Below are positions 30,967 through 53,234 of a stretch of DNA of 64,000 nucleotides, piece after piece. The notes beneath the pieces are model-generated. The model made no database searches. It was not told where the DNA came from and saw only the letters and a list, made by a program, of their open reading frames with translations. Made by a program: the position numbers and the translations under genes. Source of the stretch: Candidatus Cloacimonadales bacterium (GTDB lineage Bacteria; Cloacimonadota; Cloacimonadia; Cloacimonadales; JAFGVF01); NCBI GenBank assembly GCA_963663475.2, contig CAXXJV010000001.1:64001-128000 (forward strand). Direction: 5' to 3'. How positions within the stretch are numbered: the stretch's first letter is position 1; the number at the start of each line of letters is the position of its first letter.

Positions 30967-30990
30967 TACCCAAATGCACTATTCGGGTTA
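30967..30990 (-). repeat. Collapsed 24-bp remnant of the palindromic family (both termini only)
   Basis: Minus strand TAACCCGAATAGTGC-ATTTGGGTA equals the family left end joined to the right end. Confidence 0.6.
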
Positions 30991-31013
30991 AAATGTTGTG
31001 GTGAATAAGCTGT

Positions 31014-31136
31014 GTAACCACTTGTAATCTGCGTAAACGCGGGCTGGAATCCCGCGACCCAATCCGTAACCACTTGTAATCTGCGTAAACGCGGGCTGGA
31101 ATCCCGCGATCCAATCCCGTAACCACTTGTAATCTG
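31014..31136 (+). repeat. Tandem array (2.3 units of 52-53 bp) of the REP-like unit
   Basis: gtaaccacttgtaatctgcgtaaacgcgggctggaatcccgcga.ccaatcc starting at 31014, 31066 and 31119 (partial); internal hairpin CGCGGG-ctggaat-CCCGCG. Confidence 0.92.
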
Positions 31137-31204
31137 GTCTTATCTCCCTTACCTACAGTTGAGGAACTCTGGTCTTATCTGGTCTACTTGAGAGAGAGTC
31201 AAAC

Positions 31205-31230
31205 AAAAAAGCCCTCTTAAAAAAGAGGAC
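31205..31230 (-). terminator. Intrinsic terminator ending the giant-protein operon
   Basis: Minus strand GTCCTCTT-TTTT-AAGAGGGC followed by T6. Confidence 0.75.
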
Positions 31231-31253
31231 CTTTTTATCTAAGTAATTGTAAT

Positions 31254-33542
31254 TTATTCTTCTAAAGGATTGATTTCAATAAATGAAGTTTTAGCTTCAA
31301 TACCAGGAATAAACCAGCCATCAAGGAGGTCTTTAACTGATTGTGTGAAAGAATCATTAACAAGCTCTTCTTGGAAGTCGATACCTGTAACATAAGCTCT
31401 ATTAGATCTATTTTCTAATTGAACCATCATTTTACTTTCAATTCCATATTCATTAGCCATTCTTTTAATTTTACTGCTTATGATATTTAATTCAGAATCA
31501 TTAAAGAAAGGAACATATTCTTGTATCTCAGTTTCTGCAACTTCTGCTTCAACAACATCTACTTCCTCAACCTCTTCAGTTTCTTGAATTTCAACTTCTT
31601 GAACCTCTTCTGTAGCTTCTGTTTCTTGAATTTCAACTTCTTGAACCTCTTCTACAGTTTCTGTTTCTTGAACTTCTTCAGTTTCTTGAACTTCTTCAGT
31701 TTCTTCTACTACAAGCTCTTCAACTTCATCTGCTTGAATTTCTTCTATCTCAAGATGACTTTCCTTTGTTTCTACAGGAGTTTGAGAAACAAGGAGTTGT
31801 TTATTGTTTCTAGAAACTTCAAATTCAACTCTTCTATTGAGCTGTCTATTTTCTTCACTATCATTTGCAACCTTAGGATTCTCTTGTCCCTCACCGCGAT
31901 AATTGAGAATTTCTGGATCAATATCATTATCGATTAAATATTGATAAACAGATTTTGCTCTTCTTTCAGATAGATCTTTATTATAGCTTGCAGAACCAAC
32001 GTTATCAGTATGTCCTACAATACAAACTCTCACACCTGGATTAGTTTTTATAGTTTCAACTAAGAGGTTAAGACTTGGGAATGATTCTTCTTTTAGGCTT
32101 GCTTTATCAAAATCGAAATAGATATTTTCGATTACATAATTCTTTTCTTCAAGAAGATCAATTTGGATATCATAATTAAGCTCTTTAGTATCTGGATCAA
32201 AAGTTATAGAATTTGAATAAGCTTGATAGTTTGAACGGGTAATTTGAATATCAACAAGATCAATTCTTGGTAAATACAAGTTATAGTAACCATCTTTATT
32301 AGATTGAACAACATGAGTTTTTACTTCATCGTTAATTGAGAAAGTCCATGTAATATCAGTTGATACAGGATTCCCATAATTATCAACAACATTACCATAA
32401 ACTCTAATACCATCAATATATTCTTCGTTTAGAATAACAACTTTATAGATATCTTCTCCACCTTGGCCATCAGCTCTATCTGAAGAGATGAAAGCTTGGT
32501 TAGAATCTTTAATTCTATAGTAGTGTCTTTCATTATATATTGAATTTATTTCTGGTCCTAAATTGATAGGAGTTTCCCATTCTGTCCATGATGAACCTTT
32601 CTTTCTAGCTCTAAAGATATCAAAGCCACCAAAGGTAGAATGTCCATTTGAGGCGAAGAAAAGATTGGAACCATCCCAGCTAATAAAGGGAGTTTGTTCA
32701 TCGTGAATAGTATTAATAGTAGAACCTAAGTTAACTGGTTCTTGCCAGCCATTACTGTATTCTGAAACCCAGATATCATAGCCACCAATTGAGCCTGGTC
32801 TGTTAGAAGTAAAGAACATTACCCTATCTTCAAAGACATATGGTTGTAGGTCTCCATAAGCAGAAGACACAGCTTTTATTTTTACAGGTTGACTGTAGGC
32901 ATCTTGAATTTTCTCAGCTCTATAAATACCTCTATTTCCATCGTAATGGCCAAATAGATAAGCATAGCTTCCATCAGCTGAGAATGAACTCAAAGATTCA
33001 TTTCCGTTAGTTAAAAGAGTAGGAATAGGTTTGAGAGGTCCCCAAGAAGCACCTAATTTTTGACTAACAAATATGTTTTCTTTAAGAGCCTTACATTTTC
33101 TGGAAGAGGTGAAGACTAATTCTTGATTTTCAGGATTAAGAACAGCTGCAAAATCACTAAATTCAGAGTTCAAGTATTGAGGGAAATATCCAATTTGGTA
33201 CATTGGAAGATCCTTAGCTGTTCTAATCACAGAATCTTCAATCAGTTTTAGTAAAGTATCATAATTCTCATAATCAATTCCTGAGGCATTATCTACATAA
33301 TACTTAAGATTATCATAAGCTGCTTGTAAGTCATTCTTAGCCATTTGAACCTTGAACATAAGGAAATAATTATCCATATCTTTAGGGCTTTGAGCAATAG
33401 CCTTTTCCATAAGGACTTCAGCATGAGGATAGAATCCTCTATCTAAAAATGTTTCAGCTTGCTCTCTGTAGGATTGACCTATCTGAGCAAATAGCAAAGA
33501 AAAACTTAAAAGAGCTAAAGCTATAAAAAGTTTAGTTTTCAT
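31254..33542 (-). CDS. PorE-like protein: TPR, PD40/WD40-like propeller, CRD-like beta-sandwich, OmpA_C, acidic repeat linker, C-terminal domain
   Basis: FTSSR / FTSNRPG..GGYDIW / FASNGH..GGFDIF PD40 repeats; NIYFDFDKA..GHTD..YNKDLSERRA..NRRVEF OmpA_C. Confidence 0.9.
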   Translation of the reverse strand: MKTKLFIALALLSFSLLFAQIGQSYREQAETFLDRGFYPHAEVLMEKAIAQSPKDMDNYFLMFKVQMAKNDLQAAYDNLKYYVDNASGIDYENYDTLLKLIEDSVIRTAKDLPMYQIGYFPQYLNSEFSDFAAVLNPENQELVFTSSRKCKALKENIFVSQKLGASWGPLKPIPTLLTNGNESLSSFSADGSYAYLFGHYDGNRGIYRAEKIQDAYSQPVKIKAVSSAYGDLQPYVFEDRVMFFTSNRPGSIGGYDIWVSEYSNGWQEPVNLGSTINTIHDEQTPFISWDGSNLFFASNGHSTFGGFDIFRARKKGSSWTEWETPINLGPEINSIYNERHYYRIKDSNQAFISSDRADGQGGEDIYKVVILNEEYIDGIRVYGNVVDNYGNPVSTDITWTFSINDEVKTHVVQSNKDGYYNLYLPRIDLVDIQITRSNYQAYSNSITFDPDTKELNYDIQIDLLEEKNYVIENIYFDFDKASLKEESFPSLNLLVETIKTNPGVRVCIVGHTDNVGSASYNKDLSERRAKSVYQYLIDNDIDPEILNYRGEGQENPKVANDSEENRQLNRRVEFEVSRNNKQLLVSQTPVETKESHLEIEEIQADEVEELVVEETEEVQETEEVQETETVEEVQEVEIQETEATEEVQEVEIQETEEVEEVDVVEAEVAETEIQEYVPFFNDSELNIISSKIKRMANEYGIESKMMVQLENRSNRAYVTGIDFQEELVNDSFTQSVKDLLDGWFIPGIEAKTSFIEINPLEE
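31560..31725 (-). repeat. Coding tandem repeats (18-nt and 42-nt periods) encoding an E/V/Q/T-rich linker
   Basis: EETEEVQETEEVQETETVEEVQEVEIQETEATEEVQEVEIQETEEVEEV; gtttcttgaatttcaacttcttgaacctcttct at 31579 and 31621. Confidence 0.85.
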
Positions 33543-33583
33543 GAAATCTCCTTTCTTTAATTTAATTTTTAAACTTCTTTAAT

Positions 33584-33654
33584 TCAAAACTTCTTTTAAG
33601 CACTAGGACTTAATGCTTAAAAGAAGTTTTGAGGAGGGAATCCCTCCTCAAAAC
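33584..33654. promoter_or_regulatory. Two overlapping perfect hairpins between the porV-like and porE-like genes
   Basis: 19-bp stem 33584-33602/33614-33632 and 14-bp inverted repeat 33626-33639/33641-33654 share GTTTTGA. Confidence 0.7.
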
Positions 33655-33663
33655 GATCTATGT

Positions 33664-34620
33664 TTAGAATCTAAATGTTAAACCATATCTATGATTATCT
33701 TCGTTGATTCCTTCAGAATCTTCTCTAACATAAGCATAGTTCATTTCAATCATTTTAAATCTAAAACCAAAACCAGCAGTGAATTGACCATCATTAGCAC
33801 CAATTCTTACACCAGCTTGTACTTGTGATAACATATCTTCCCAAGAAGGATTTTGAGTATTTCTCATTGTTCCAAGTCCAGCACCTAAATCAGTATCACT
33901 ACCAATATTAGTCCAATATTCTGCACCCATGTGTACAGTAATCTCATCTGAACTTTCTTCTTGTCTTAAATCACCTGATACAGTAAAACCTTTCATTGGG
34001 AATACAGCGATTCCTAGGTTATATTGCATTGGGATTGATACATCATCAAATTTACTGAATACGTCTCTAACGTGAGCACCGAAAGTAATGTATTCATTCA
34101 TTTCATACATAGCACCAAGATCCATACCAAAACCACTCTTGCTCTCATCATCCATATTATCAAATAACATTTTGATGCTTGAACCCCATAGGAATTTACC
34201 TGTGCGAGTTGCTAAGCTTAAGTTAATATTATTATCTTGGTAATCATAAGTACCAGTTGAATTACCAAAGCCATCATAGCCTTCTAAATCACTAGTACCA
34301 GCATTAATCCAAGAGATTGCCATGTAACCATATTTAAATCTCATACCCATACCGGCAAAGCTTGTAGTTCTATCAAGACCTAAGCCGTCAGTATAATCTA
34401 TACCTACTTGATAATCTGCAATCTTACCTAAACCAGCAGGATTCCAGTAAGCAGCTGTGATATCATTCATATAAGCAGTACCTGTACCACCCATTGCCAT
34501 TCCTTTTGCACCATAACCCATACGGAGATAAGGTTTATTGTGGTTATTATCAGCAATAAGAGCGGAAACAAGACTTAGCATCACTGCTACAACTATCATT
34601 ATTTTTACACTTTTAGTCAT
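33664..34620 (-). CDS. PorV/PorQ-family (FadL-like) outer-membrane beta-barrel
   Basis: Signal peptide; YLRMGYGAKGMAMGG..AAYWNPAGL hatch motif; amphipathic beta strands; C-terminal YGLTFRF BAM signal. Confidence 0.85.
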   Translation of the reverse strand: MTKSVKIMIVVAVMLSLVSALIADNNHNKPYLRMGYGAKGMAMGGTGTAYMNDITAAYWNPAGLGKIADYQVGIDYTDGLGLDRTTSFAGMGMRFKYGYMAISWINAGTSDLEGYDGFGNSTGTYDYQDNNINLSLATRTGKFLWGSSIKMLFDNMDDESKSGFGMDLGAMYEMNEYITFGAHVRDVFSKFDDVSIPMQYNLGIAVFPMKGFTVSGDLRQEESSDEITVHMGAEYWTNIGSDTDLGAGLGTMRNTQNPSWEDMLSQVQAGVRIGANDGQFTAGFGFRFKMIEMNYAYVREDSEGINEDNHRYGLTFRF

Positions 34621-34641
34621 TTATTCCTCCAAATTATTAGA

Positions 34642-34663
34642 GGAAGGGGGCGTACCCCCTCCC
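34642..34663 (-). promoter_or_regulatory. GC-rich hairpin directly after the giant gene stop, no U-tract (mRNA stabiliser or partial terminator)
   Basis: Minus strand GGGAGGGGG-TACG-CCCCCTTCC. Confidence 0.55.
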
Positions 34664-34666
34664 AAT

Positions 34667-37600
34667 TTATTGAATTGCTATCTTAACAACCTTATTAATT
34701 TCCTTAGCACCATCAACTATGTTGATTCTAGCGAAGTAAGCACCACGAGCTAATCTCTTACCATCGTTGGTTCTTCCGTCGAATTGAATCATATTATTAG
34801 TGTCTCCACCAATAGAGTTATGGCTCATTTCACGAACAAGTTTACCAGCGAAATCGAAGATTTCAATAGTAACTTGTGCTTCTTTTGTAGTAGGAATTAC
34901 GAAAGTACCAACATCTCCTCTTTGAAGAGGTGAAGGATACATATAAGGTTTTGCAGTGAACATTAAGTCAACATTTGCCCAGTCCATATCAACAGTGAAG
35001 TTCATCATCTGAGTATTACTGTTTCCAGCTCTATCATAGATTGTAGCTTCAATGCGATATTGACCAAGACCATTAACTGGAACACGGCAAGCATAACTAT
35101 TTGCAACATTATTTTTCACAGTATCAATCACAGTAACATTATCATTATCAAAGACTTTAATCTCTAACATATCAAGACCAGAAGAAGCCATAGCTTTAAC
35201 TTCAGGCATGATATCAGATAATGTCATCATAACATCAACAAACATATTCTCAGCATGAGTATATGTAGTATTTGCTACAGGAGATACAAATTCTATTGTT
35301 GGGATATAGCTATCAATTGGGTAGCTTTGGTTAGAAACAGCGTTTCCACCAGCAACATTTGATGCCATAACAAGAACTTTAACAGTATTTGCATCAGCAG
35401 GGATAAGACCACCGTGAAGGTTAATATTATAAATGCCATTATCAGCTTGAACAGTAAATGGTTCATAGATAACTTCATTATTTGGCATTGCAATGATGCT
35501 AGCCATAATTGAAGCGTTATCTAATTCGTAGCCATTACCATCAACAGTAAATGAAATAGCATTATTATTTTGAGTATTTACCCAACCGTTTGAAGCATCA
35601 AGAGCTGAGATAGCGATGATTGGAGCAGGTGCAGTAATTGCGAAGTTTCTAGTAACAGTAGTAACGTTACCAGCCATATCTTTAGCTTGAGCTTCGATTA
35701 CATAAGTACCAGCAAGTAAATCATCAGTAGAAACAGCTAAGTTAAATGCTTCAGGACTATCTGAATCAATCTCTTCAACAGTGAAATCACCATTAAGAGA
35801 AGTAACTTTTATAGAAGACATAGCTAAGCCAGACATATTGTCATTAGCCATGATATTAACATTAACATTATTTCCGACCATTACTGAGTAATTGATTTCA
35901 GGATTAACAATAGTTAATTCAGGTCTGCTATTATCAATTGGGAATGTTTGACTAGAAACTGTTTGGATAGCCCAATCATTTTCAGCAATCACTTCAACTT
36001 TGATAGCATTTTGACCAGGAGTAACAATACCACCGTGGAAGTTGATAGTACCTTGTCCATTTTCTAAAGAAACAGAGAAAGGTCCTTGAATAACTTCATT
36101 GTTAGGTAATTGAATGATATTAGCTACAACAGATTGAAGAGCTGTATCAGTATGTCCTGATTCAACAGTTAAGTCGAATTCATAATTATTAGCAGTTGTG
36201 ATCCACCATGAACCATTAGCAAGAGGGCTAAAGTCAACAAGAGGAGCAGGTCCACCAACAATTTCGAAGTTAACAGTAGCAGATGCAGTGTTACCAACAA
36301 AGTCACTTACAGAAGCAATAGCAGTATGAGCACCAGGAACTAGGTCAGAAGCTGCATAAGCAACAGAACCATTAGAAACTTGGCCATTAACCACATTACC
36401 ATCAAGAGTAAGTACAAGTGTTGAGATATCGATACCAGAAGCACCTGAGAAGTGTTGTACTAAATCGTCATCTATGAAGTGACCTTGAGGATCATTAAAT
36501 GAGAAGGCGATTTGAGCATCTGAACCGAAGTTAACTACAGGGTTAGTAGGAGCAGTAGCAGTAACAACAGGGTCCATATAATCTAAACTGAATGTTTGTT
36601 CAGCAACATTATTTACATCGATGTCGTCAATAGCATTAACTCTTACTTTAATACCTAATGAATTTGGAAGTTGTAATTGAGCGAAGCCAAATACATATTC
36701 GTTTTCATTAGCAGTAGCCACAGGGTTAGAAGTTTGGATAAGAATACCAGCTGGGTTAAGATCAGTTATAGCAAGGATAGAAACGTTGATATCTTCAAGA
36801 GCAATAGTTCTTCCATCAGCAGGAACAACACTCATAAGAAGTTCGTTTGACATTGCAGGATTTAACCACCAACCGTTTTCGAAGCCAGCGTCATGAATAG
36901 TAATTTGAGGTCTGTTAACAACTACGTTAGCAGTAACGTTAGCAGCCATTACATTAACTAAGTTAAGGTTATTTACAGCAGTCCACTGAACATTAAGAGA
37001 AGCAACTTCTCTAGAGTTTCTACCAGATCTCATTGGTTGTGGAACTAAAGTAACTAATTCTTCAACTGTCATTTCATAACTAAATTCATTACCTGTAACA
37101 GTAATTTCATTCATAGGAACATTAAGAACAGTATTAACTGCAGGATCATTGTTAGTAACAACTAAGTTATAATCCATAAGACCAGTTTCAGCATCTTCAA
37201 TTGTAGCTGTTAATGTTCTATTAGTAGCTGATAAGATACTTGTTGATTCAAATGCGATTGTAGGCATTGAGTCATCAACGAAGAAGTATAATGTTTGATT
37301 AGCATGGAAACCATTCATTTCAACATGAACTTCAAGTTCATTTTGACCTGCCATCATATTGACTAAATCGAAACTTACTACTCCATTTACAAGAGCAATG
37401 TTATTAACATTGTTGATGCCATTATTTAGAGTAATTGAGATGTTACCTAGTCCGAAACCTGCAGGTAATTGATAACCTTGTTCATTTTCTTCATGATATA
37501 CAGTGAAGTTCATAGCTACATTTGGAAGAGTCCATAAGTTAGTACCTTCAACGAATACATCATTGTTAACTGGAGCGAATTCAGTAACAAACATTTCGAA

Positions 37601-43600: not shown

Positions 43601-46600
43601 GAATTCAACAGTATTAACAACACCGTCAGGGTCGTTAACTAAGAATTCAAGTTCGATATCGTTACCACTATTTAAAGTGATAGCAGGATCAGTAGTAGCT
43701 GAAACACCGGCAGGTGAGTGAGCATATCTGAATGTTTTAGTATCTGTGAAATTGTTACCTAAAGCATCAGTAGCATTAATAGTGATTTGATAATCACCTT
43801 CAGCTAAATCAAATCCAGAATAACCAGCATTGAATACAAATTCAGCAACACTACCGTTGAAATTAACAGCAACATTGTTGATAGCGGCTGTATTAGGAGT
43901 AACGCCGATTGTAGCTAAATTGAAGTTAGCATTAATATTTCCGATACCGTCAGTTCCAAACATTTCAGGATCTTCAAGTTCAATTACTAATGAAGTGAAA
44001 TCTTGGTCATAAATAATAACATCGCCCCAGTTATAGCTAGCAGGGCCAACTGGTGAGTTAAATGTTACACCATTAGCAATAACTTGTGGTGCAGTAGCAT
44101 CTAATAAGATGTTAATATTTTCTGATTTTTCGAAGCCATATATATTAGTATAGGTTACTGTTAAATCAGTATTGCCAAGAGTAGCTGCATCAGCAGTGAA
44201 ATCATTAGCAGTGATTGTAAGAACTGCAGTATTACCATTGATTACTGGAGTCATATCATTAACTAATTGGTTACCACTAACAACAAAGTCAGTTCCAACA
44301 GGAACATAAGCAGGGTTAAGTGATTCACCAAAGTTAGTGAAGTCTATTGTTAGGTCGAAAGCACCTAAAACAGGATTTTGAGTTCCAGGATTATTGATAA
44401 GGATATCAAAGTCATTACCGTCAACTTCAACATCAAGAGCCATTTCGTGTTCGAAAACATTAGTTAAAATGTTATCGAAAGGATCTCTGAATGAAGTAAT
44501 GTTAAGAGTAAGCATTTGATTTTCTGCAAATAGAGCAGGATCAGTAATAGTAACAGGGAATGTTGCTAGCCATTTTGAGTTGTGCATAACAGTTGGTGCA
44601 ACAGTGTAAGCACCGAATGTTAAACCAGCAACAGGATCAATAGTTACATTATCAATATACTCTTGGAATTGAGTATTAATATATACATTAACTACAGGAT
44701 CTACAGTTTGACTTCCACTTACTGCTAAGTAATTTGTAGCATTACCAGTAACTAATTCAGCATGTTGAATTAGAGGAACAATAGGACCTGAACCAGCATA
44801 AGAAATAGTCTTAGTAGAAGCAGGAGTAGATTGACCTGTAATATTTGTAGCACTTACGCTAACAACTTGAGAAGTTTGGTTATGGTTAGTAACTACAGGG
44901 ATACCTGTCAATTCAGCAACCCATTGCATTCCATCCCAAGTAATATTATTTTGAGGAACAAGATAAGGACTAGGAATATCTAAGATATTATTGAAGTCAG
45001 TAAGTGTAACGTATGGTTTTGCTACAGTACCTGTTAAAGGAGCATCACTATTGAAGATAACTTTAATAGTAGCTAGGTCACCAGGAGTAACATAATACAT
45101 ACCATTTTCACCTAATGTTTGACTCCAAACATAGATTTCATCTAAGCTTGTTGTATTACCATCGATTAAATTGAATACGTTAGCAACAGATTGTTGGCTA
45201 ATTTCGTTAGTAGAATAAGTAATTCTATATTCTAATTCTTTCCAACCAACAGTTGAGTTAACTACGATATCACTATTTAAGAAGTAAAGATCATTAACTG
45301 CATCATAAGCAAGAGCAATCCAGCCTTGGTTCGCATTGTTATAATGGTCAGCTAAGATTTCTACACTAGTAACATTAGCATTATCTGTAGCTAATGGTTG
45401 AACATCTAAGATTACACCAATTCTCTGACCATTACTAATGTATGGAGAAGTTGCTGCATTCATTCTATCTAAGCCATCATATTGGAAAGCAGTAATGCCA
45501 TCAACATCAGCTTGACTAGCGATAAATTCAACAGTAGCTTGAGGGCCTTGAGCAAGATATCTATTAGAAGGTGAGTTATAGTTTTCACCAGCATAGTTCT
45601 TGTGATTAACGAGGTCTTCTAACTCATTAAACTGAATAGTAACAATGTCTGTATTTTCAACAGCAGTGTTATCAACAGGAGTAATTTTCCAGATTAATGC
45701 TCTTTGATTAACATTAATTAACTCACTACCTAAAAGAGTAACAGTCCAAGTAGGATCAACACTTGGTAAGGTTACACCAGTTTCAGCAACTGAAACACCA
45801 TTCATATCTTCAACTATTCTCTTAACATAGAGAGAACCATCAAATTGATATGAATCAAGGTCTTGTGGGTCATTTAAAGTAAGATCAAAGTTATAGCTAT
45901 TAACTTGATTACTTAAGTTATTGATACCTGGTAAAGTATTAGCTGTAGCATAATCATTGATATTACTAGCAGCTTGAACAATAGTATAATCACTATAAGT
46001 AGGAACTTCTAAATCAATTTTGATTGATTTAAAGATTGAGATAGGATTAACAGCAAAGAAGTCTTCGTATCTTACTTCGATTTGGATGTTATCACCATCA
46101 TCATAAGTATTCCAACATGCTTGAACATCAGGTGTTCTTACCCATGTAATTTGGTGGTTATAAATTGTTACACCAGGAATTGGATTAGTAGAAGTTGTTA
46201 CAACTGTACCGTTAATCCAATTAGTATCAGGGAAGTCATTAGTGATATTGTCAAATTCAGCTATAGGATTAATATCAGCTAAAACAGAATTAACAGTCAT
46301 AGTTAATTCAACATCATGTTCAGGAGCAAACCAACCTTGTGGATCATATCCTACATAACGTGATGCAGCAATACCATTAAATGTATATTCAGGAATATTA
46401 ATAGCAACCATGTCTTGGTTATAAGGAGTTGCTACAAAATTAAAGTCTGATCTTGCTTCAACAACAAAATCTACAACTTCATAACCAGTAGTTTGATTTT
46501 CAAAATTAGCGAAATCAAAGTCTGCATTATCCCATGAATAAGTATAAGTATGTTTTTCAAAACCAGTTACAGGTTCTGATTCAAAAACATCACTTTCGTA

Positions 46601-49600
46601 TTGAGCTGAAGTAGCTTGGATACCTTTGTAGGTAAGAACAACATTTGAAGTTGTTAACTGACCTTGGTAAGCAATAACGTCAGCTTCAAATCTGATGTTT
46701 TGATTAGGGTCTATTGAGAAATAGTTTTCAGTTTCATTACCATTAACATAAACTCTTAAGTCACTAATAACAACTTGGTTATTATCTACAAAAGGAACAT
46801 CAGTATTAGTAGAAGCAGTACTTGATTCAGTTTCATAATACTCATAAGGATGTGTAATTGTAAGATCTTCAACTTTAAGAGTTGCATATTCAGGATTACC
46901 AATACCAAAATCATCAATAATAACAGTATTTAGACCATTAACTAAACCGCTAGTTACAGTCTCAACAGTACCGTTATTTAAAGTAATTTCAACTTGGCTG
47001 ATTCTGTCAGCATCTGTTAATTCAAATGTTACTTTAACCTTATTATTATTTTCAATTATGTCAATGTGGTTACCTTGATCAGCATATTGATCAAGTCCTT
47101 CTACATTATATATATTCACATTAGAAACTGTAGGAATATCTTGGATAGCTACAGCAACAGCTGGTTCATTATATATAGTATAGAAATCATAGTCTGAAGT
47201 AACTTCTAAATTGAAGTTTAATTCAACATAACCATAAGGTGGGTTACCAGCATCGATAAATTCATTATAATCGAAATCAGTTTGTTCCCATCTATAAACA
47301 TAAGTATTCTTAATAAACCCGTTAACTTCTTCACTTTCAAAAGTACTACTCATAAGAGTTGGAAGTCCAGCTGAAGCTGTTGGAGTATAGTTAAGAACTA
47401 CATTATTTATATCAATATGATTTTGATAAGCAACGAAAGTACCTTCAACGTAGAAATCATCATCTAATTCAGCTGAGAATTCATTATCTACGTTTTCTTG
47501 GCCATTAACGAAGAATTTAATGTCGCTAATAACAACTTGATCTTCATCAACGAAAGGTGTAGATAAAGCAGGATTGCTATTAGCATCAGAAGAATCATCT
47601 AATCCATTATATGGGTGAGATATTTCAACATTAGCAGCAACTACTTCATATTGATCATAATCACTAGCATCAAATGTGTCGATAACAAAAGTATTTAAAC
47701 CATCTTGATAGTTAGTAACGTTAAAGATTTGTCCATCATTAAGAGTAATAGTAACAGCATCAATTCTTTCACTGTCAGTTAACTCGAAAGTTACATCAAC
47801 AACATCACCATCTTTAATAATGTTTTGATTTTCTGGACTATTATTTAGAACAGCAACATTACTTACAGTAGGCATAGGAGTAATGTCGATAGTGTGAGAA
47901 TGAGTCTCTTCATTATCTAACATATCTTGTGCTACGAAATCGAAAGTTAATGTATTTGTTTCATAGTTATTTGGAATAGTAATTTGCCACTGATAGATGT
48001 TTCCACCTAAGGCTGTAGCTAAGGTATTATCAGCTATTAAAGTATTATCTGAACAAGAGATAGTAACTTTATCAGCTTGAACACCAGCAATAGCATCAGT
48101 TATTTCATAACTTAAAGTTAAGACTGTGTTTTCATCAACAGTGTTTGGAACAAGATTATCGTTGAATGTTGGAGCTACATTATCATAAGTAACACCGTTG
48201 TAAGTGAAATCATATTCATGAACAGCTACATCACCAGTAGTAAATCCTAATGAAAGTTCAACTGGGATTTCGATAACTTGACCATTAGCAATACCATTAG
48301 CAATACCAGTATAAGAACCAGTATAAGTAATTTCCCAGTTTCCATTTCCTAAGTCATTAACTTGAGGAGCTGAAATTGTAGCACCTGTGAAGTTTGAGAA
48401 ATTAACATCAAATAGATATTCTTCAACACCACGAGCAGGAGCTTCAATTGGAGTAATTCCTGGGTAACCATTGATACTAACTGTAAATTGGAAATCACCA
48501 GCTTCAGCAGCTTTATCCAATACCATATCAGCATCACTATTAATATAGTAGAACTGACCAGAGGCAGAAACAACTTGCGGAGCTTCTCTTAACACGATAA
48601 AGTGAACAAAAGCTTCTGAAGAGTCTGTATGCCATGCATCAGCATCAAATGGGTAAGGAGGGTTGTTATATCTTCCAGGGTTTCCACCAAAGTCATTTGG
48701 GGTCCTTAGAATTAATGTATAATTAACGTTTTCTAAAACACCATCAGCAAAGTTATCTATAGTTGCTGTGATATTAAAGTTTTTATAACCAACAGTACCA
48801 GTAGTAGGACATTCAAAATTGTCAGTTAAATTAGTTGGAGTTGCTGTAATAACAACATTAGCACCAGGAACTAATTCCAAAGTATCTTCATCATATACTA
48901 AAGCAGTCCAATCAGTTTCTTTAAGATATTCTGAAGTTTCAATATCAAAATTGAAACTATTAATTCCATTAGCTAAGTAGAAAGTATTACCAGCAGGATT
49001 TGGAATATAATTTTCAGAATTAGTACCGAGAATTTGAGGATTTTCATTATCTACACGAGTTGTAGCGTATGAGTAAGCATTTTCTGGAGCAATATAACCA
49101 GTATCTGAATAAGCTTCAGGAACAACTTTAAGCTCAACATTAAGAAGTTTGCTTGCTAAAGCACCAACAATATTGTTATTGCTATTAGTTAAGTTAGCAA
49201 AGTTCATTGTTTCGCTAAAGTTTCCGATTCCTGCTATTTTATTTCCAGAAATACTTCTTACTTTAGTTTCATCATCTGGATCATAAACTCTTAAAGACCA
49301 TTCATAATCTACAGAAGAGTTACCAATAGTGAAAGAAATTTCATTGAAAGGTTTATCAATACCGTTATGAGCCATTCCAGCTTCGTTAGCAGGATTAGTC
49401 TCTGCATCATAAGCCCAAGATGGATTACCAGGACTGATACAATGAGGAACTACATTAACGATATCACCAACAATTTCTGGCCAGATTGGTTCTTCAGGTC
49501 TATCGATTTTGAAAGATCTGTCACCAGCTGCTACATTAGAAATATTAAAAGATCCATCTTCTATATCTCTAGTAATTACTTCAATTTTAATATCTGAAGT

Positions 49601-51742
49601 AGCATTACCATAAGTATATGTACCTGTTGCGTTTTCAGCAAATGCAGATACAGGAACTGATAATGTTACACTGTTGTTTGCATCAAAGTTTGATAATTCA
49701 GCATCAAAAGCTGCTGGTAAATCATTGTTATTTCTTGTGAAAATAACTTTTTGAGCATTAATTAAATTATTAACTTCTACAACAATATCAATTGAATTAT
49801 CACCAGTATCAAAATACTGTTCTGTATTGTTAGCTGTAAAATATGAGTTAACATAGAATACAGGAGTAGTACCATCAACAGTTACTAGACTATTAGTTCC
49901 GCCTTCATGAAGTGAAGTAACATCATAAAAAACGATTTCTGATGGAGTTGTTGGGTCTGGAGGAATTACTGGAGGAACATAACCATCAAACTGATTAACC
50001 AGTTCAACTGATTTTTGTGATGTTCTAATGTTACCTGCATTATCTTGAATATAGGCAGTTACAGTATAATCACCAGCTACCCAGTCCATACTTTCAGGAG
50101 ACCAACTAAAAGAACCATCGCTATTAACAGCAGCATAAGCCTCTGTGTTCACGAAGTTAATATCAGTTTTACTAACACTATCTTCACCTAAGTCTGATGA
50201 AGTAGGATAGAAATACTTTTTAAAGCTAGCATCTGAATCAGAAACGATTTCAACCCAATACTTAACTTGTTCTTTTCTTTCAGGTTCTAAATCGTTTAAG
50301 AAGTCTCTTTTTACTGAGAATGTGAAGTAAACTTCATCAACATCATCAAGAGAATCTTCAGGACCCCAAGAATCTTCTTGTCCAGGATTATTACCACTTT
50401 CATCAATATATCTATTAATAGTATATCTTTGATTATCACTTGAAGAGTCAAATATTCTTAATTCAGAAGGACTACCATTCAAGTTTTCGAAAATAGGAGC
50501 TGTATTGTCTAAGACGAAATCAAGAACATTAAGTTCTGTTTCACCATCAGCAATATTAGGATTAACAACTGGAGGTAGTGGAGTTAATGTTACACTATTA
50601 CCAGCATTATCCATCATACTTACTAAAGTTAAGCCATAAACAGCTTCATCAAGTAGTACATTATTTACTTTACCGTCCCAAACAAATGTTATCACATCAC
50701 CATTAATGCTTACAGTTGGATCATCTATCGCAAATTCAATGTAGCCAACATTAGTGTCTGTGTTTTCATTTTGAACAAGTATTTCAAAAGCACTTGCATT
50801 ACCAGCTTGACCAAATCCAGGAATATCAATTTTAGCTGAGATAGTGTTAGGATTAGTATCCCAATCTCCCATCATATCATTACCTGGAGAGAATCTGAAC
50901 TGATCATTATCATATAAGTCAGATATGTTTCCTAATGTAGGAGGCATTCTATCTGCAGGATATGGATCTCCATTAACATCACCTGTAATAACATTTGATG
51001 GGTGAGGAACGCTCACATTACCCCATTGATCTGTCATTATCATTGGTATAGTTATAGATGGAATATAACCTGTTGAAATAGGCCCTGGCATTCTATCTGC
51101 TTCAAGTTCAGTAAGAACATAAGTTGCAGTAAATAAGTTACCATTACGAGTTGTAGCCAACTCAGCTGGCCCACCAATAGATGTTAAATCTAATTTTACA
51201 TCAATAACATCCTCTGTAGGATCATTCCAATCTCTATTGAAGACGAATTTCATTTCATCACCAATACCGAAAATTGATTTTCCTGCAGGAACTGATTCAA
51301 TGTGAGTTGAATTTCCGTTAGTTACAAAAGGAATTTGATTATCGATTAGTAGGTTATAGCTTTCAGTTGTATTGAGCGGGACTGATGATCCATCTACAAA
51401 GACAAATACTTGGTAGATATCACCATCTAATGGTTCATTTACATCACCAGCAGTTACTACATAATCTCCAGCATAGGAGTTAGCAACTCTTCTAGCTAAG
51501 GTTAAGCCAAATGACTCAGTTTCGCCAATAATATTATCACTCTTAATTTTTACAGAGTCGATTGTTGTAGCATCAGTATCAACTGTTACATCAAAATGAA
51601 CAGTGTACCCTACAATTGCGACATCTTGTTCGACGCCATCCGGATCGTAAATGGTGTGGTTAGCAGTTACTGTTGTTGCAGCAAAAGCTAGACCAGTCAG
51701 CATCACGAACAATAAGATTAAAATCGGATGTTTGTTTAACAT
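34667..51742 (-). CDS. Giant (5691 aa) secreted acidic multi-Ig-domain surface protein with a C-terminal FlgD/T9SS-type sorting domain
   Basis: 17-kb uninterrupted ORF; GGAGG RBS; Sec signal peptide ending AFA; recurring D..AP / D.AGN Ig-like motifs; CTD YPSP..IEIFDFAGKLVR..FDGRTNDGKRLARGAYFARI..KIAIQ. Confidence 0.92.
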   Translation of the reverse strand: MLNKHPILILLFVMLTGLAFAATTVTANHTIYDPDGVEQDVAIVGYTVHFDVTVDTDATTIDSVKIKSDNIIGETESFGLTLARRVANSYAGDYVVTAGDVNEPLDGDIYQVFVFVDGSSVPLNTTESYNLLIDNQIPFVTNGNSTHIESVPAGKSIFGIGDEMKFVFNRDWNDPTEDVIDVKLDLTSIGGPAELATTRNGNLFTATYVLTELEADRMPGPISTGYIPSITIPMIMTDQWGNVSVPHPSNVITGDVNGDPYPADRMPPTLGNISDLYDNDQFRFSPGNDMMGDWDTNPNTISAKIDIPGFGQAGNASAFEILVQNENTDTNVGYIEFAIDDPTVSINGDVITFVWDGKVNNVLLDEAVYGLTLVSMMDNAGNSVTLTPLPPVVNPNIADGETELNVLDFVLDNTAPIFENLNGSPSELRIFDSSSDNQRYTINRYIDESGNNPGQEDSWGPEDSLDDVDEVYFTFSVKRDFLNDLEPERKEQVKYWVEIVSDSDASFKKYFYPTSSDLGEDSVSKTDINFVNTEAYAAVNSDGSFSWSPESMDWVAGDYTVTAYIQDNAGNIRTSQKSVELVNQFDGYVPPVIPPDPTTPSEIVFYDVTSLHEGGTNSLVTVDGTTPVFYVNSYFTANNTEQYFDTGDNSIDIVVEVNNLINAQKVIFTRNNNDLPAAFDAELSNFDANNSVTLSVPVSAFAENATGTYTYGNATSDIKIEVITRDIEDGSFNISNVAAGDRSFKIDRPEEPIWPEIVGDIVNVVPHCISPGNPSWAYDAETNPANEAGMAHNGIDKPFNEISFTIGNSSVDYEWSLRVYDPDDETKVRSISGNKIAGIGNFSETMNFANLTNSNNNIVGALASKLLNVELKVVPEAYSDTGYIAPENAYSYATTRVDNENPQILGTNSENYIPNPAGNTFYLANGINSFNFDIETSEYLKETDWTALVYDEDTLELVPGANVVITATPTNLTDNFECPTTGTVGYKNFNITATIDNFADGVLENVNYTLILRTPNDFGGNPGRYNNPPYPFDADAWHTDSSEAFVHFIVLREAPQVVSASGQFYYINSDADMVLDKAAEAGDFQFTVSINGYPGITPIEAPARGVEEYLFDVNFSNFTGATISAPQVNDLGNGNWEITYTGSYTGIANGIANGQVIEIPVELSLGFTTGDVAVHEYDFTYNGVTYDNVAPTFNDNLVPNTVDENTVLTLSYEITDAIAGVQADKVTISCSDNTLIADNTLATALGGNIYQWQITIPNNYETNTLTFDFVAQDMLDNEETHSHTIDITPMPTVSNVAVLNNSPENQNIIKDGDVVDVTFELTDSERIDAVTITLNDGQIFNVTNYQDGLNTFVIDTFDASDYDQYEVVAANVEISHPYNGLDDSSDANSNPALSTPFVDEDQVVISDIKFFVNGQENVDNEFSAELDDDFYVEGTFVAYQNHIDINNVVLNYTPTASAGLPTLMSSTFESEEVNGFIKNTYVYRWEQTDFDYNEFIDAGNPPYGYVELNFNLEVTSDYDFYTIYNEPAVAVAIQDIPTVSNVNIYNVEGLDQYADQGNHIDIIENNNKVKVTFELTDADRISQVEITLNNGTVETVTSGLVNGLNTVIIDDFGIGNPEYATLKVEDLTITHPYEYYETESSTASTNTDVPFVDNNQVVISDLRVYVNGNETENYFSIDPNQNIRFEADVIAYQGQLTTSNVVLTYKGIQATSAQYESDVFESEPVTGFEKHTYTYSWDNADFDFANFENQTTGYEVVDFVVEARSDFNFVATPYNQDMVAINIPEYTFNGIAASRYVGYDPQGWFAPEHDVELTMTVNSVLADINPIAEFDNITNDFPDTNWINGTVVTTSTNPIPGVTIYNHQITWVRTPDVQACWNTYDDGDNIQIEVRYEDFFAVNPISIFKSIKIDLEVPTYSDYTIVQAASNINDYATANTLPGINNLSNQVNSYNFDLTLNDPQDLDSYQFDGSLYVKRIVEDMNGVSVAETGVTLPSVDPTWTVTLLGSELINVNQRALIWKITPVDNTAVENTDIVTIQFNELEDLVNHKNYAGENYNSPSNRYLAQGPQATVEFIASQADVDGITAFQYDGLDRMNAATSPYISNGQRIGVILDVQPLATDNANVTSVEILADHYNNANQGWIALAYDAVNDLYFLNSDIVVNSTVGWKELEYRITYSTNEISQQSVANVFNLIDGNTTSLDEIYVWSQTLGENGMYYVTPGDLATIKVIFNSDAPLTGTVAKPYVTLTDFNNILDIPSPYLVPQNNITWDGMQWVAELTGIPVVTNHNQTSQVVSVSATNITGQSTPASTKTISYAGSGPIVPLIQHAELVTGNATNYLAVSGSQTVDPVVNVYINTQFQEYIDNVTIDPVAGLTFGAYTVAPTVMHNSKWLATFPVTITDPALFAENQMLTLNITSFRDPFDNILTNVFEHEMALDVEVDGNDFDILINNPGTQNPVLGAFDLTIDFTNFGESLNPAYVPVGTDFVVSGNQLVNDMTPVINGNTAVLTITANDFTADAATLGNTDLTVTYTNIYGFEKSENINILLDATAPQVIANGVTFNSPVGPASYNWGDVIIYDQDFTSLVIELEDPEMFGTDGIGNINANFNLATIGVTPNTAAINNVAVNFNGSVAEFVFNAGYSGFDLAEGDYQITINATDALGNNFTDTKTFRYAHSPAGVSATTDPAITLNSGNDIELEFLVNDPDGVVNTVEFQVYLDADNDGDYTDDLGNLVLQANDAVYPYGFNWDLSSPQYTSYLYNANYDGNNDGDNLDLDENIRNYIVRVLTTSSQMRSVSDAQFTYSVADVTAPEVSDVLAAGSNSLQLVYDYITPANNNVNLTALVGAWTDVDYVELTLNGDVLVYDMVNPVNWTYDANDIGAVVITAKAYDFVGNVSAEADFSTVLEIVNPSYDKFYDLTLVDYTNFDSDNTIANGTIYSPSNPLIQNNLRVYAIYPNGLEGISEIQFFVNRIETATGNVIATLPVNNDAAVNPQYGNTNVVNPANCYDATANVWNSWITVDPNLYTNNGNYDGSDYSYEFFAVLIDSYTNNEVIPQAGIFNDNADFRVDYMKPELVVNNASVTHTSYAYYNGNTDRLVFDYVDFDGLNINNFFVDYNAVNVADNANITIDALTNTVSIPWTGLNTITGEGIVTYNVTVTDANGNVSEITPIDVYVDNQAPQTAIASLAYMTDADNGGEAMNQLHNFDGNPIAVMADNAENLTIQIDRAQILGLSTEDTENWANQTQPWYANTNDDIYPPVKLYRNIDGAGWNLIAYDHEVDANNMYQFDVTVDTGAMVEFAIIAEDTRGNVEGDLIPFDGIIDNYQVDLTVNVLYPTDITTTIVNHNADDVISGLELLTANVATPAGIQSVEFQYNDGVNWMPLGSDDSMADVDYQFSIANANIPFALIPGVHIEITDSALNTSWVELANVNDIWTADVTLARETYVVNYYVDANNDGVIDAVEMANNFVVTENINADGFALQFDTSIIPDGSYLFRAVPFDNLVATDDQAAAVEMNLIIDNSAPAFNLTALNYVMLDSYKTLAENLEFTLDYANPNDVHTVQAWLVDVNNPANTYQIVNDVYAAYDVRPTDFSLVLAGVPDGNYYLDVTVQDFVFNANNQSPALGDNLYIDTNAPVITAVNNPFNMSGIYTETHSFTVAYNDYLAQLLDANSNGLGVKAMQATFTHNATVDLVDVKVSDDGANLVFDWTPSQAMMNEVINGQDNILVNVDLTLTDHNDYVSAIFNAGNFTLRSDEVGAKIMVVSDFRNGAETFHQTNVTNNNEITDVIGGNNINLYAFLPEGNNVIDPNNVRFEYWDGTNWMQFAANAVWTPIANFAGNGTVAGYAEFMSVNWNIANMDGDYTVRTVSEYNFGEVVNETNLHIWNSTIVPEITLSTLEGQTTTEVNRGSEYILSIGNFNSSNPEFFNQVNYMYRFLDENDNVASPWNQLSGFVANEYNWTIGMDYLFAEKVQIAVQVEDIFNNVDDQASFIANGGNPYLVDIIDSQAPMVTDLTVNQAGNPVAAGATVAIANALDLAITVDNPVLDLASLVINLDGNQVHSLAYDTNNQVDPTLVNYSVDISALTTGTYQIEVVTADFVGHTYNETFAFSVDTDAPTGALVLAENDNGSITRGMAYTFNANAMDNVSTQLTINYFWSDAAANVWNPIALDANGQWIIPQTWTIGANYDFKAEIEDEYNNVGESIVTYQVFDNITPLVANSMNTLVDDSIFNMNDEITLTFDVDATNIINGNIELQYADVLNGNWMSLGFTPAALNAGLTEVTFANLGLASGFYNFKAIVSDLAIPANQYDINLGSMVYYDADAPEVFFTNIDNDSEFVLGEMVAINADVNYTDGTNEIAPQDVASVEFKVNGQSHAIVENAPYTYVWNTALLANVGTYTIEAIVTDNDGFINNTLQNVVLVTPNENDPYAVITAFEFDNEAISTDKMYAKVTNWGNNVTAVVAQYTTDNINWVDFAINTVNNDPYYEFDFNAEAIQNAIAVKVNVMMNNDEESSLVYPLNVTYNQGEFELAPANGNIEIHENNLMVVDTDSMPNVIRVDENGYAGYETINEDYEFNLVVNANNELPGYWLSGVANGAAWIKFAELDPMAASNGAIVNYNNPYWFTMLDNEMPLADHYAQLTDQVLVNSNIAGNATYTLPLTATVAVEGDIVALAWDAVLADFVEIDVVYSESDASMTFTAPVNTVVTVGQYLGFEMFVTEFAPVNNDVFVEGTNLWTLPNVAMNFTVYHEENEQGYQLPAGFGLGNISITLNNGINNVNNIALVNGVVSFDLVNMMAGQNELEVHVEMNGFHANQTLYFFVDDSMPTIAFESTSILSATNRTLTATIEDAETGLMDYNLVVTNNDPAVNTVLNVPMNEITVTGNEFSYEMTVEELVTLVPQPMRSGRNSREVASLNVQWTAVNNLNLVNVMAANVTANVVVNRPQITIHDAGFENGWWLNPAMSNELLMSVVPADGRTIALEDINVSILAITDLNPAGILIQTSNPVATANENEYVFGFAQLQLPNSLGIKVRVNAIDDIDVNNVAEQTFSLDYMDPVVTATAPTNPVVNFGSDAQIAFSFNDPQGHFIDDDLVQHFSGASGIDISTLVLTLDGNVVNGQVSNGSVAYAASDLVPGAHTAIASVSDFVGNTASATVNFEIVGGPAPLVDFSPLANGSWWITTANNYEFDLTVESGHTDTALQSVVANIIQLPNNEVIQGPFSVSLENGQGTINFHGGIVTPGQNAIKVEVIAENDWAIQTVSSQTFPIDNSRPELTIVNPEINYSVMVGNNVNVNIMANDNMSGLAMSSIKVTSLNGDFTVEEIDSDSPEAFNLAVSTDDLLAGTYVIEAQAKDMAGNVTTVTRNFAITAPAPIIAISALDASNGWVNTQNNNAISFTVDGNGYELDNASIMASIIAMPNNEVIYEPFTVQADNGIYNINLHGGLIPADANTVKVLVMASNVAGGNAVSNQSYPIDSYIPTIEFVSPVANTTYTHAENMFVDVMMTLSDIMPEVKAMASSGLDMLEIKVFDNDNVTVIDTVKNNVANSYACRVPVNGLGQYRIEATIYDRAGNSNTQMMNFTVDMDWANVDLMFTAKPYMYPSPLQRGDVGTFVIPTTKEAQVTIEIFDFAGKLVREMSHNSIGGDTNNMIQFDGRTNDGKRLARGAYFARINIVDGAKEINKVVKIAIQ

Positions 51743-51759
51743 AATTTGAAACCTCCAAA

Positions 51760-51930
51760 TTACAATTTTTTTTCTAATATTTGTAAGAAATTCCCAGCAT
51801 AGCCGACATTTCTTGTTTCAAAATTCATAAAATCTTCTACTTCTCTCTCAAATATTCTACACCAACCGTAAGGCTCTCCTCTGTTTTTTACATTAGTTAA
51901 AAGTCCATAAAAACCGCTTTTCATAAGCAT
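51760..51930 (-). CDS. Small ORF (56 aa, or 54 aa from ATG 51924) immediately upstream of the giant gene, absent from the ORF track
   Basis: Translated by hand: MLMKSGFYGLLTNVKNRGEPYGWCRIFEREVEDFMNFETRNVGYAGNFLQILEKKL; AGGAG 9 nt before the second ATG; stop 3 nt before the giant gene's GGAGG. Confidence 0.55.
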   Translation of the reverse strand: MLMKSGFYGLLTNVKNRGEPYGWCRIFEREVEDFMNFETRNVGYAGNFLQILEKKL

Positions 51931-52004
51931 TTTCTCCTATATTAAGTTATATCATTTTATTTCCGAAACGTGCAAAGTGTTTTAAACACACTAATATAGT
52001 TTCG

Positions 52005-52033
52005 ATTTGATAACAAGTTCATGAAATTGTCAA
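52005..52033 (-). promoter_or_regulatory. Putative sigma70 promoter of the giant-protein operon
   Basis: Minus strand TTGACA-17 nt-TCAAAT. Confidence 0.45.
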
Positions 52034-53234
52034 GTTTTTTCTATTTTTTTTAATATTAGTTATTTTAGGCAATTTTTTATGGCTTTTTTATCCTTTCCTA
52101 TACTACAAAGTGCATGATCAGCATATTTCAGTTTTTGCATTTTTATTTACTTTATCATTTCTCTGATATTATATTGTCTTTTAGGCGTTTAACTCATATA
52201 TAAACATTTCACTCAGGTGAAATATTATCTAATTATGCAACATTCTTTATTTTTTTTTATTGCAAAGATAATTATCTGATACTTACCCATGTAAACAAAA
52301 CCTACACCTTGTATCTGACTCTTACTTTATCTTTAGTTCTCTAACAATAATCTTATAAAACTGAAAAGTATTCAAGGCACAAGAGAATTTAGATAAGCTA
52401 ATCAGCTAGCCCCCCTTTTTTGCTTTGTGATATTATAGGAGTAATTAGTTAGAAGGTTAAGCTAGAATGGCAAGTAGAATTTATTCGAGTAAGGCAGTTT
52501 CTTCTTCAAAAGCAAGAAAGGCAGAAATATACCCTTATCGGCAAGCATCTAGAGCATTATTAGGCGAAATTAGTCTCAGATTAACTACAGACCAAGACTA
52601 AAGTCAAGTTTAAGATGAGGCAATATAAAGTCTGCTGAAAGACTAATTTGTTTGATTAAATTTGATGAAACTTTCTTATCTTTCTTTACGGTCTATTGGG
52701 CCTCTATTAGCTATCCATTAGTATAAGAACTAATAATCTCCCAATAGACAAGCTATATAAGTTATATATACATTAGATTATCTTAGAGGGAAGAAAGGGT
52801 TACTCTCCCTGCCTTAGACCAACATGCCATCTCTAGGCAGGAGCCAACAAGCCAAAGAATTAGGTTGTCCAACTGAGACCATACCTCTGATACAGAATTA
52901 AAGAACAGAAAAGGGAAATAGCTCCTTCCATAGTATATATATTTATATATATACCAGCACTAACTTGTATTCATAAACAAGGAATAAGTATTTTAGTAAA
53001 ATTAGCATATTTATGATGTATTTCTTATATTTAAATGGCAGAAATTTAAAATTAAAGACAATAAATAGTTAGCTTTATTTTGGGATATTTAGCATTATAA
53101 GTGGATTTTAAGACTATTTAATAATATTTTTTGTAAATTTATTTTTTTTTCTTGACTAAATTGTAACGAATCTTTACAGATGAATATACGAAGTTTACAC
53201 ATAATTAATCACTTATAAATTTAATGGGGTTGTC

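Follow-up and report, generated by a model that had tools for sequence, protein, structure and literature searches.

A Conserved Three-Gene Module of Cloacimonadota Encoding a Giant Secreted Protein, a PorV-Family Barrel and a PorE-like Protein: A Putative Type IX Anchor of the Cell Surface

Organization of the Locus

The analyzed DNA (hereafter, the window) is a stretch of 64,000 nucleotides from a Candidatus Cloacimonadales bacterium (GCA_963663475.2, contig CAXXJV010000001.1, positions 64,001 to 128,000 of the forward strand). Four open reading frames (ORFs) of the same orientation were found on the minus strand between positions 31254 and 51930, with successive gaps of 17, 46 and 121 nt. 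The three larger ones encode a giant secreted protein, a barrel of the PorV/PorQ family and a PorE-like protein. It is probable, at roughly 0.6 in our estimate, that these three genes form a module by which a single giant protein is exposed at the cell surface and anchored to the cell wall. An earlier note on this DNA, made from the sequence alone, had described four co-oriented genes with the same gaps as a display module for a surface protein of ~600 kDa in an apparently non-Bacteroidota anaerobe. The ORF calls agree with this layout, the computed mass of the giant is 622.3 kDa, and the host is a metagenome-assembled genome of Cloacimonadota. This genome (G000 in our numbering of genomes; L numbers denote loci) comprises 3.30 Mb in 2 contigs and is 99.24% complete. 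The main features of the locus are as follows:

34667-51742, minus strand: giant secreted surface protein, 5691 aa (ORF, composition, Pfam, model)
34670-34939, minus strand: C-terminal sorting domain of the giant, type-A CTD for type IX secretion (PF18962, TIGR04183, subtype model)
33664-34620, minus strand: PorV/PorQ-family barrel, 318 aa (NF033709, AlphaFold2 model, Foldseek)
31254-33542, minus strand: PorE-like periplasmic protein, 762 aa (NF052230, Pfam)
31833-32120, minus strand: OmpA-type peptidoglycan-binding domain, aa 475-570 of the PorE-like protein (PF00691)

Conservation of the Module

Barrel orthologues were clearly separated from paralogues among the 41 genomes of the order (at least 197 bits against at most 62.6 bits), and complete orthologue matches in the phylum set of 232 genomes scored at least 185 bits. 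The presence of the PorE-like protein was scored by its N-terminal 470 aa. The barrel orthologue was found in 15 of the 41 genomes of the order. At all loci around the barrel orthologues outside the host genome (14/14), a giant with a CTD of the same subtype came first, then the barrel, then an OmpA protein. Five further loci from Cloacimonadota (L071-L075) had the same giant-barrel-OmpA order without exception. Thus, the synteny check bore out the triad proposed in the earlier note at 19 of 19 orthologous loci, all of them in Cloacimonadota.

The distribution of the barrel and of the N-terminal part of the PorE-like protein over the 232 genomes of the phylum was as follows:

Both the barrel and the PorE-like part: 85 genomes
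Barrel only: 8 genomes
PorE-like part only: 6 genomes
Neither: 133 genomes

In total, the barrel orthologue was present in 93 genomes and the PorE-like part in 91. For 86 of the 96 barrel matches, a PorE-like match was located on the same contig at a distance of at most 1000 nt, and the median gap was 64.5 nt. Among the genomes with the PorE-like part only, the matches in G079, G083 and G122 were partial at contig ends or short, those in G200 and G219 were weak, and that in G128 resembled the second copies described below. Six of the eight barrel-only genomes had long barrel ORFs (486-784 aa, four of them 766-784 aa), while the remaining two were 75% and 67% complete. The two genomes with long ORFs outside this set of four were examined, and it was found that the barrel is fused to one OmpA domain in G022 and to three in G040. 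Both fusions lack TPR and PD40 domains, and no separate PorE-like gene lies behind them. The loss of these domains from the fusions fits a barrel-docking role that becomes redundant once the two parts are joined, which suggests that the separate protein docks on the barrel through its TPR and PD40 domains.

Within the order, PorU was found in 41 of 41 genomes. The N-terminal part of the PorE-like protein (at least 243 bits) was found in 13 of 41 genomes, all of which hold the barrel, and in none of the 26 genomes without it. Since PorU is universal and the barrel and the PorE-like protein are patchy, this pair does not belong to the core type IX secretion system (T9SS). The triad as a whole is spread patchily across 25 of 66 genera, and within this spread the genes were lost and kept together, as a functional unit predicts. 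Judging by these sequence comparisons, the three-gene module is real and conserved.

The Giant Protein and Its Sorting Domain

The giant protein has a pI of 4.05 and contains 11.4% Asn and six Cys. Its interior showed only scattered matches to Ig-like Pfam families (Big_13, Big_7 and Big_3_2). Comparison of the protein with itself using BLAST gave no off-diagonal rows at E 1e-5, though two pairs of similar segments were visible by eye. Modeling of the last 600 aa led to a chain of all-beta domains of ~100 aa each with a mean pLDDT of 86.5, and the Foldseek search against the PDB revealed multi-domain Ig/macroglobulin (MG) arrays and titin I65-I70 as similar structures. According to these models, the giant is a beads-on-a-string fibre of Ig-like beta-sandwich domains; with ~55 domains of ~4 nm each, we estimate that such a fibre would measure on the order of 200 nm. 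Its orthologues range from ~2560 to 6830 aa where whole genes could be read. In G008 (L055, G008:C1:219066-234400), the orthologue is represented by two ORFs of >3288 aa and 1741 aa that are 243 nt apart; the gene may have been split or frameshifted, or it may be a pseudogene.

The last ~80 aa of the giant matched the type-A models PF18962 (37.1 bits, cut-off 27) and TIGR04183 (28.7 bits, cut-off 23). The FlgD_ig model was matched at its cut-off (27.1 against 27 bits), so the FlgD-like CTD suggested earlier was recovered with both kinds of models. Type-B assignment was not obtained: CHU_C (PF13585) reached 22 bits, below its cut-off of 27, and TIGR04131 gave no row at E 0.01. The model of the terminal domain contains seven beta strands in the last 92 residues (509-511, 521-527, 530-538, 544-553, 557-563, 576-585 and 590-599 in the numbering of the 600-aa model), with pLDDT of 67-89 by block.

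A hidden Markov model (HMM) of the CTD subtype was built from 15 orthologues and run on all ORFs of at least 60 aa in the host genome. It scored 173.7 bits on the giant and 56.8 bits on the next-best ORF, among 148 CTD-bearing ORFs. By this profile, the CTD subtype is private to the giant within its genome.

The Barrel and Its Predicted Contact with the Sorting Domain

The 318-aa protein matched the PorV-family model NF033709 over its full length (positions 5-326 of 326) with 86.5 bits and E 2.5e-24, where the cut-off is 90; the six-frame search gave 82.2 bits. The equivalog models scored far lower than their cut-offs, namely PorQ with 60.2 bits (cut-off 220), PorV with 27 bits (cut-off 250) and PorV2 with 56.3 bits (cut-off 325). 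The PorP/SprF model (TIGR03519) gave no row on this protein. The AlphaFold2 model of the barrel has 14 strands and a pLDDT of 73.5, and its best Foldseek matches were the PorV chains 8gl6_F and 6h3i_F, followed by FadL and TodX. Searching the PDB by sequence revealed a sole match, the Flavobacterium johnsoniae PorV, at E 0.0035. A single barrel was used for that search, as the alignment with fused rows was swamped by OmpA matches. The full-length family match, the 14-strand model and the fold matches all agree with the earlier assignment, and the barrel is best placed in the PorV/PorQ family and not in PorP.

The complex of barrel residues 24-318 (alignment of 16 rows) with the giant's C-terminal 110 aa (alignment of 19 rows) was then predicted. 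The ipSAE score was 0.91 in three runs, versus 0.02 for the best of three controls; for comparison, 116 of 157 solved complexes and 2 of 215 mismatched pairs attained that mark. The CTD-barrel interface anticipated in the earlier note is therefore present in the prediction. The runs share at least 94% of their contacts, and the pLDDT of the partner is at least 84. On the side of the CTD, the predicted interface consists of residues that are invariant in the subtype (P22, P24, D49, F50, G52, R85, G86, Y88, F89, A90 and K106). On the side of the barrel, it is formed by the mature N-terminus and by the loops between strands 1-2, 3-4, 5-6, 7-8 and 13-14, all on one face, which by the usual topology rule would be the outer one.

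The PorE-like Protein

The third protein matched the PorE model NF052230 in one stretch covering positions 73-603 of 648, with 201.2 bits at a cut-off of 600. Among the Pfam families, OmpA (74.9 bits), PD40 (26.3 bits) and, weakly, CarboxypepD_reg (CRD) were recognized. The OmpA profile PF00691 was matched over its whole length (1-98 of 98, E 6.5e-21). Comparison of this domain with OmpA/Pal domains of the PDB gave E 1e-17 and weaker, and the second-best PDB sequence match of the whole protein was 6top, an 'OmpA family protein', with 64.8 bits. The peptidoglycan-binding residues of the OmpA domain, judged by eye, are presumably kept. Orthologues show TPR, PD40, CRD and OmpA domains, with a CRD stronger than here. 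On this sequence evidence, the protein has the TPR, PD40, CRD, OmpA order of PorE. It is a PorE-like relative and not an equivalog.

By reading, the N-terminus of the protein has a signal peptide and no lipobox cysteine, so it is not a lipoprotein. Together with the domain order, this agrees with the non-lipoprotein PorE variant of the earlier note. Beyond the OmpA domain, aa 580-762 (31254-31800) comprise a linker of acidic repeats with many E, V, Q and T residues and a domain of ~100 aa without an assigned family. This tail is common to the orthologues in G008, G014, G016, G018 and G037; those of G013 and L073-L075 stop at the OmpA domain.

The PorE-like gene is the sole one in the host genome. 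At locus L113 (G014:C1:82263-86628), a second PorE-like gene (781 aa) was observed behind a gene for a 665-aa secreted protein with a barrel-looking end, with no giant nearby. Comparable lone copies occur in ~8 other genomes. Such copies suggest that PorE-like tethers may serve other barrels as well.

The Type IX Inventory of the Host Genome

SprA (487 bits summed) and PorU (571.6 bits, over the cut-off) were found in the host genome, together with a GldK-like gene that adjoins sprA. PorV-family proteins are encoded at eleven places, that is, at ten besides this barrel, and four of the ten score over the family cut-off. A CTD-like tail was found in 148 ORFs, in 138 of them at E <1e-3. PorP/SprF gave no matches in the whole genome; the control genomes were also silent, so it should be regarded as not found rather than absent. 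No type-B CTD in the genome scored over the cut-off. With neither a PorP/SprF match nor a type-B CTD over the cut-off, the usual partner of PorE was not found here. SprA, PorU and ~140 CTD proteins are thus accompanied by no detected GldL, GldM or PorP.

Seven of the eleven PorV-family barrels directly adjoin a large CTD-bearing ORF, where about one would be expected by chance (a rough estimate from ~140 CTD genes). Examples, all of them outside the window, lie at C1:1166058-1172688, C1:873291-881497, C1:1305927-1310888 (with 1304911-1305918) and C2:166017-172210. Judging by gene order, private pairing of cargo and barrel may be a general rule in this genome.

In addition, the genome has a second PorU-like gene of 1653 aa (C1:1305927-1310888), which by reading adjoins a PorV-family barrel and polysaccharide-export-like genes. 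A protein of this kind, ~1650-1730 aa long, was found in 39 of the 41 genomes of the order (not in G016 and G038), and its match to the sortase model is confined to the first ~750 positions. At C1:1163656-1170280, small genes resembling ExbB, ExbD and TonB (by reading) stand immediately upstream of a 1061-aa ORF and of one of the PorV paralogues with a high score. The tail of the 1061-aa ORF is CTD-like by eye but has no match to the CTD HMM.

Comparison with Known Systems

Published systems were compared on the basis of excerpts of the cited papers, and statements about them apply to those excerpts. The closest arrangements are F. johnsoniae Fjoh_3952/3951/3950 and PG1035-PorP-PorE of Porphyromonas gingivalis, in which a CTD cargo, a private barrel and a TPR-propeller-CRD-OmpA wall binder are likewise combined (PMC12618676, PMC9143113). 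In P. gingivalis, the three proteins PorE, PorP and PG1035 form a complex (PMC9143113). In F. johnsoniae, five operons contain a PorE homologue, a type-B substrate and an SprF-like shuttle, and Fjoh_3952 is apparently static; the order of the genes and the static link to peptidoglycan that has been proposed resemble those considered here (PMC12618676). The barrel belongs to the PorV/PorQ family here and to PorP/SprF there; the CTD is type-A by the models here and type-B there; the PorE-like protein has no lipobox cysteine (by reading) and extends into an acidic linker with one more domain at the C-terminus; the host is a member of Cloacimonadota, some lineages of which fuse the barrel with OmpA. 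The new element is the private PorV paralogue for one type-A cargo.

A PorV-family barrel with one particular type-A CTD partner is also known from the PorQ-PorZ and PorV-PorU pairs of P. gingivalis, in which that CTD is uncleaved (PMC10202324, PMC10947112). The PorZ CTD is retained on PorQ, and it was hypothesized in a review that cognate PorV-like barrels shield the CTD from cleavage (PMC10202324). However, the partner in those pairs is an enzyme or a lipopolysaccharide-presenting component of ~0.1 MDa, whereas here it is a fibre of 0.6 MDa, and the excerpts on these pairs link no PorE-type wall tether to them. With the general carrier PorV (6h3i, 8gl6), the barrel shares the fold (Foldseek E 7.7e-11, TMq 0.66) and a loop-mediated binding of the CTD, which is predicted here and known for PorV from solved PorV-CTD complexes inside SprA (PMC10994853). 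The sequence likeness to PorV is faint (E 0.0035), and PorV is mobile and serves all type-A cargos, whereas inheritance of this barrel is tied exclusively to one cargo together with a wall tether. As for the third protein, the WD40 domain of PorE is likely involved in PorP binding (PMC12773672), which agrees with the docking role suggested by the fusions.

The claim of an undescribed T9SS-related anchor, made in the earlier note, stands in part: the cargo/shuttle/PorE layout is in print for F. johnsoniae (PMC12618676), but its PorV-family, type-A version is undescribed in the literature searched. Full-text searches of the literature gave no description of a type-A cargo served by a PorV-family barrel and a PorE-like tether, and T9SS parts in Cloacimonadota were mentioned at most.

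Proposed Mechanism and Alternative Explanations

According to the proposed mechanism, all three proteins would be exported into the periplasm by Sec. The giant would then be threaded through the type IX translocon SprA, which is encoded, as is PorU, elsewhere in the genome. Its private type-A CTD would be received by the adjacent PorV/PorQ-family barrel and not by the general PorV carriers, and would remain on the extracellular loops of the barrel, as PorZ does on PorQ and SprB on SprF. From the periplasmic side, the PorE-like protein would tie the barrel to peptidoglycan via its OmpA domain, with its TPR/beta-propeller part probably docking on the barrel. The outcome would be a fibre-barrel-wall rivet for an adhesin or a surface-layer-like filament. 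The family of each part, the conservation and co-inheritance of the triad, the barrel-OmpA fusions, the uniqueness of the CTD subtype and the predicted interface come from computation, and the export through SprA, the retention of the CTD, the direct contact between the barrel and the PorE-like protein and the role of the fibre are inferred.

The following points weigh against this reading. Binding, anchoring and surface exposure are predicted here from genes and models. PorV-CTD complexes have been solved, so the predicted interface may reflect a general likeness to PorV and type-A domains, and it says nothing about specificity for this particular CTD. The PorE-like protein scores far under the PorE cut-off (201 against 600), and the barrel lies slightly under the curated cut-off of the PorV family (86.5 against 90). 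In several genomes, second PorE-like copies occur away from the barrel orthologues (15 PorE-like matches). Related genomes are not independent, so the co-occurrence counts exaggerate how many independent events there were. As a conserved hairpin with a T-rich tail stands between their genes, the barrel and the PorE-like protein are perhaps not made in a fixed ratio or from one transcript. Finally, GldL and GldM were not found in the host genome; the controls for GldL and for the GldM model TIGR03517 were silent as well, a control match under the cut-off being seen just for PF12081, so the absence is unproven.

It could be assumed that the barrel is a transient private shuttle, which ferries the CTD from the translocon until PorU cuts it off, after which the fibre would go free or be attached to a surface glycolipid, while the PorE-like protein merely places the barrel near the translocon. 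The CTD of the giant does fit type-A models, the members of which are normally cleaved (PMC10994853, PMC10202324), PorU is present in the genome, and the predicted loops on one face of the barrel resemble the loops by which PorV holds a CTD (PMC10994853). However, a wall tether that in some lineages is even fused to the barrel ill suits a carrier diffusing from the translocon, the substrates of those F. johnsoniae operons that include a PorE homologue are static (PMC12618676), and the CTD subtype is kept across the order, as a lasting interface would predict. We hold the shuttle to be unlikely, though worth keeping in mind. The other two explanations earn much less credence. General parts of the T9SS might stand beside the cargo by chance, the barrel being the PorQ/PorV of this lineage and the OmpA protein its PorE, both serving all ~140 CTD cargos. 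The single PorE-like gene of the genome and the need of PorE for gingipain secretion in P. gingivalis (PMC12773672) speak for this. Yet 26 of the 41 relatives lack both genes and keep PorU, both genes adjoin the giant at 19 of 19 loci, and ten other PorV-family paralogues, four of them over the family cut-off, are available in the genome, which makes such a coincidence very improbable. Still lower in our estimate stands a self-contained pair for export and anchoring without SprA, of the two-partner or autotransporter style. The failure to find GldL and GldM would suit it, but SprA, PorU and ~140 CTD proteins are present, and the 14-strand FadL-like model with its N-terminal segment inside would offer no channel for folded Ig domains.

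A broader proposal is put forward tentatively, and we consider it possible rather than probable: Cloacimonadota, for which no PorP, GldL or GldM was detected, may sort their type IX cargos by private PorV-family barrels, and the triad may represent a third mode of T9SS surface attachment, in which the type-A-like CTD is held permanently in a PorV paralogue riveted to the wall. If this is true, wall-tethering of carrier barrels would be the ancestral job of PorE, older than the PorP/type-B system of Bacteroidota. To our knowledge, how very large adhesins withstand load on the Gram-negative surface is known for few systems, and for type IX only in Bacteroidota. The locus suggests that the principle of cargo, private barrel and wall tether predates the PorP/type-B case and is less rigid, and that it would also work when the barrel comes from another family and the signal is type-A-like. 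Cloacimonadota are widespread anaerobes of sediment and digesters, and we know of no cultured, genetically tractable members. The module would mark the most conspicuous surface structure of this bacterial group, and the natural barrel-OmpA fusions offer a ready means of telling which domains of PorE do the docking.

Intergenic Elements and the Small ORF

Besides the three genes and their domains, the following features were found at the locus:

33543-33663, minus strand: conserved RNA element of two hairpins, separating the barrel gene from the PorE-like gene (folding and covariation)
34646-34663, minus strand: short G+C hairpin within the 46 nt that separate the giant gene from the barrel gene (hairpin scan, reported on the plus strand)
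31201-31230, minus strand: hairpin with T-run resembling an intrinsic terminator, after the PorE-like gene (reading of the sequence)
52005-52033, minus strand: promoter-like site, TTGACA, 17 nt, TCAAAT (reading of the sequence)
51760-51930, minus strand: ORF of 56 aa, a doubtful gene, within the giant gene's leader (ORF list)

The 121-nt gap before the PorE-like gene contains a first hairpin of 13 bp with a T-rich tail (33654-33626) and a second hairpin that follows it. The minimum free energy of the double hairpin is -42.5 kcal/mol (z -7.2), and none of 200 shuffled sequences folded as well. The element is kept in 8 of 8 genomes of the family, with compensatory changes at 8 of 28 pairs among the 8 sequences. 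No Rfam family was matched. The arms of the two hairpins share five bases, so they may be alternative structures. The hairpins could lower the level of the PorE-like transcript or mark a processing site, and because such conserved structures precede the PorE-like gene, a single transcription unit is doubtful. The earlier note had listed one terminator for the whole locus. There is indeed an 8-bp hairpin with a T-run at 31230-31201, 24 nt past the PorE-like stop, the stem of which was also found in the hairpin scan (given on the plus strand), but it is not the only one of its kind, as a hairpin with a T-rich tail also stands in front of the PorE-like gene.

The promoter proposed earlier at 52033 was read as TTGACA (52033-52028) and TCAAAT, with 17 nt in between, upstream of the 56-aa ORF and the giant. 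Both blocks are unchanged in the alignment of 7 of 7 genomes of the genus. The site is absent from the list of the promoter consensus scan, and promoter-like sites in the region are no commoner than in shuffled sequence.

The 56-aa ORF, counted earlier as a member of the module, did not hold up in this role. Throughout the genus (7 of 7 genomes) its frame stays open without indels, but it evolves fast (23/27/37 variable sites by codon position in the genus alignment), and in the sister genus (G008) it is interrupted by a stop after 17 codons. No counterpart was seen upstream of four more distant giant orthologues, and neither Pfam nor NCBIfam gave a family match. From these comparisons, it appears doubtful that the ORF is a gene.

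Contigs from metatranscriptomes (four runs of one study) span the locus, with 30 of 30 bins covered in run X1. This evidence consists of contigs in which no transcript ends or junction bridges are visible, and DNA carry-over is possible.

Flanking Region

Searches for RNA families gave no matches at the gathering score in the 64-kb window, and the 1.3-kb spacer upstream of the giant's leader gave none even when E values up to 1 were allowed. A tRNA search of 29400-31300 also found none. Beyond the spacer, a divergent gene (53235-57497) encodes a sigma-54 activator of 1420 aa with an N-terminal AAA_16 match, many TPRs, a sigma-54 interaction domain and HTH_8. A sigma-54 promoter for the giant was considered and rejected, since 51743-53234 contained no matches with up to 2 mismatches, and the 23 matches in the window correspond to the chance level. 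The activator gene adjoins the module in the 6 loci of family f1 with upstream DNA examined and not in G013, G014 and G018; it is not part of the module. The non-coding spacer itself (51931-53234), which separates the leader of the giant from the activator gene, has G+C-richer stretches within the A+T-rich genome.

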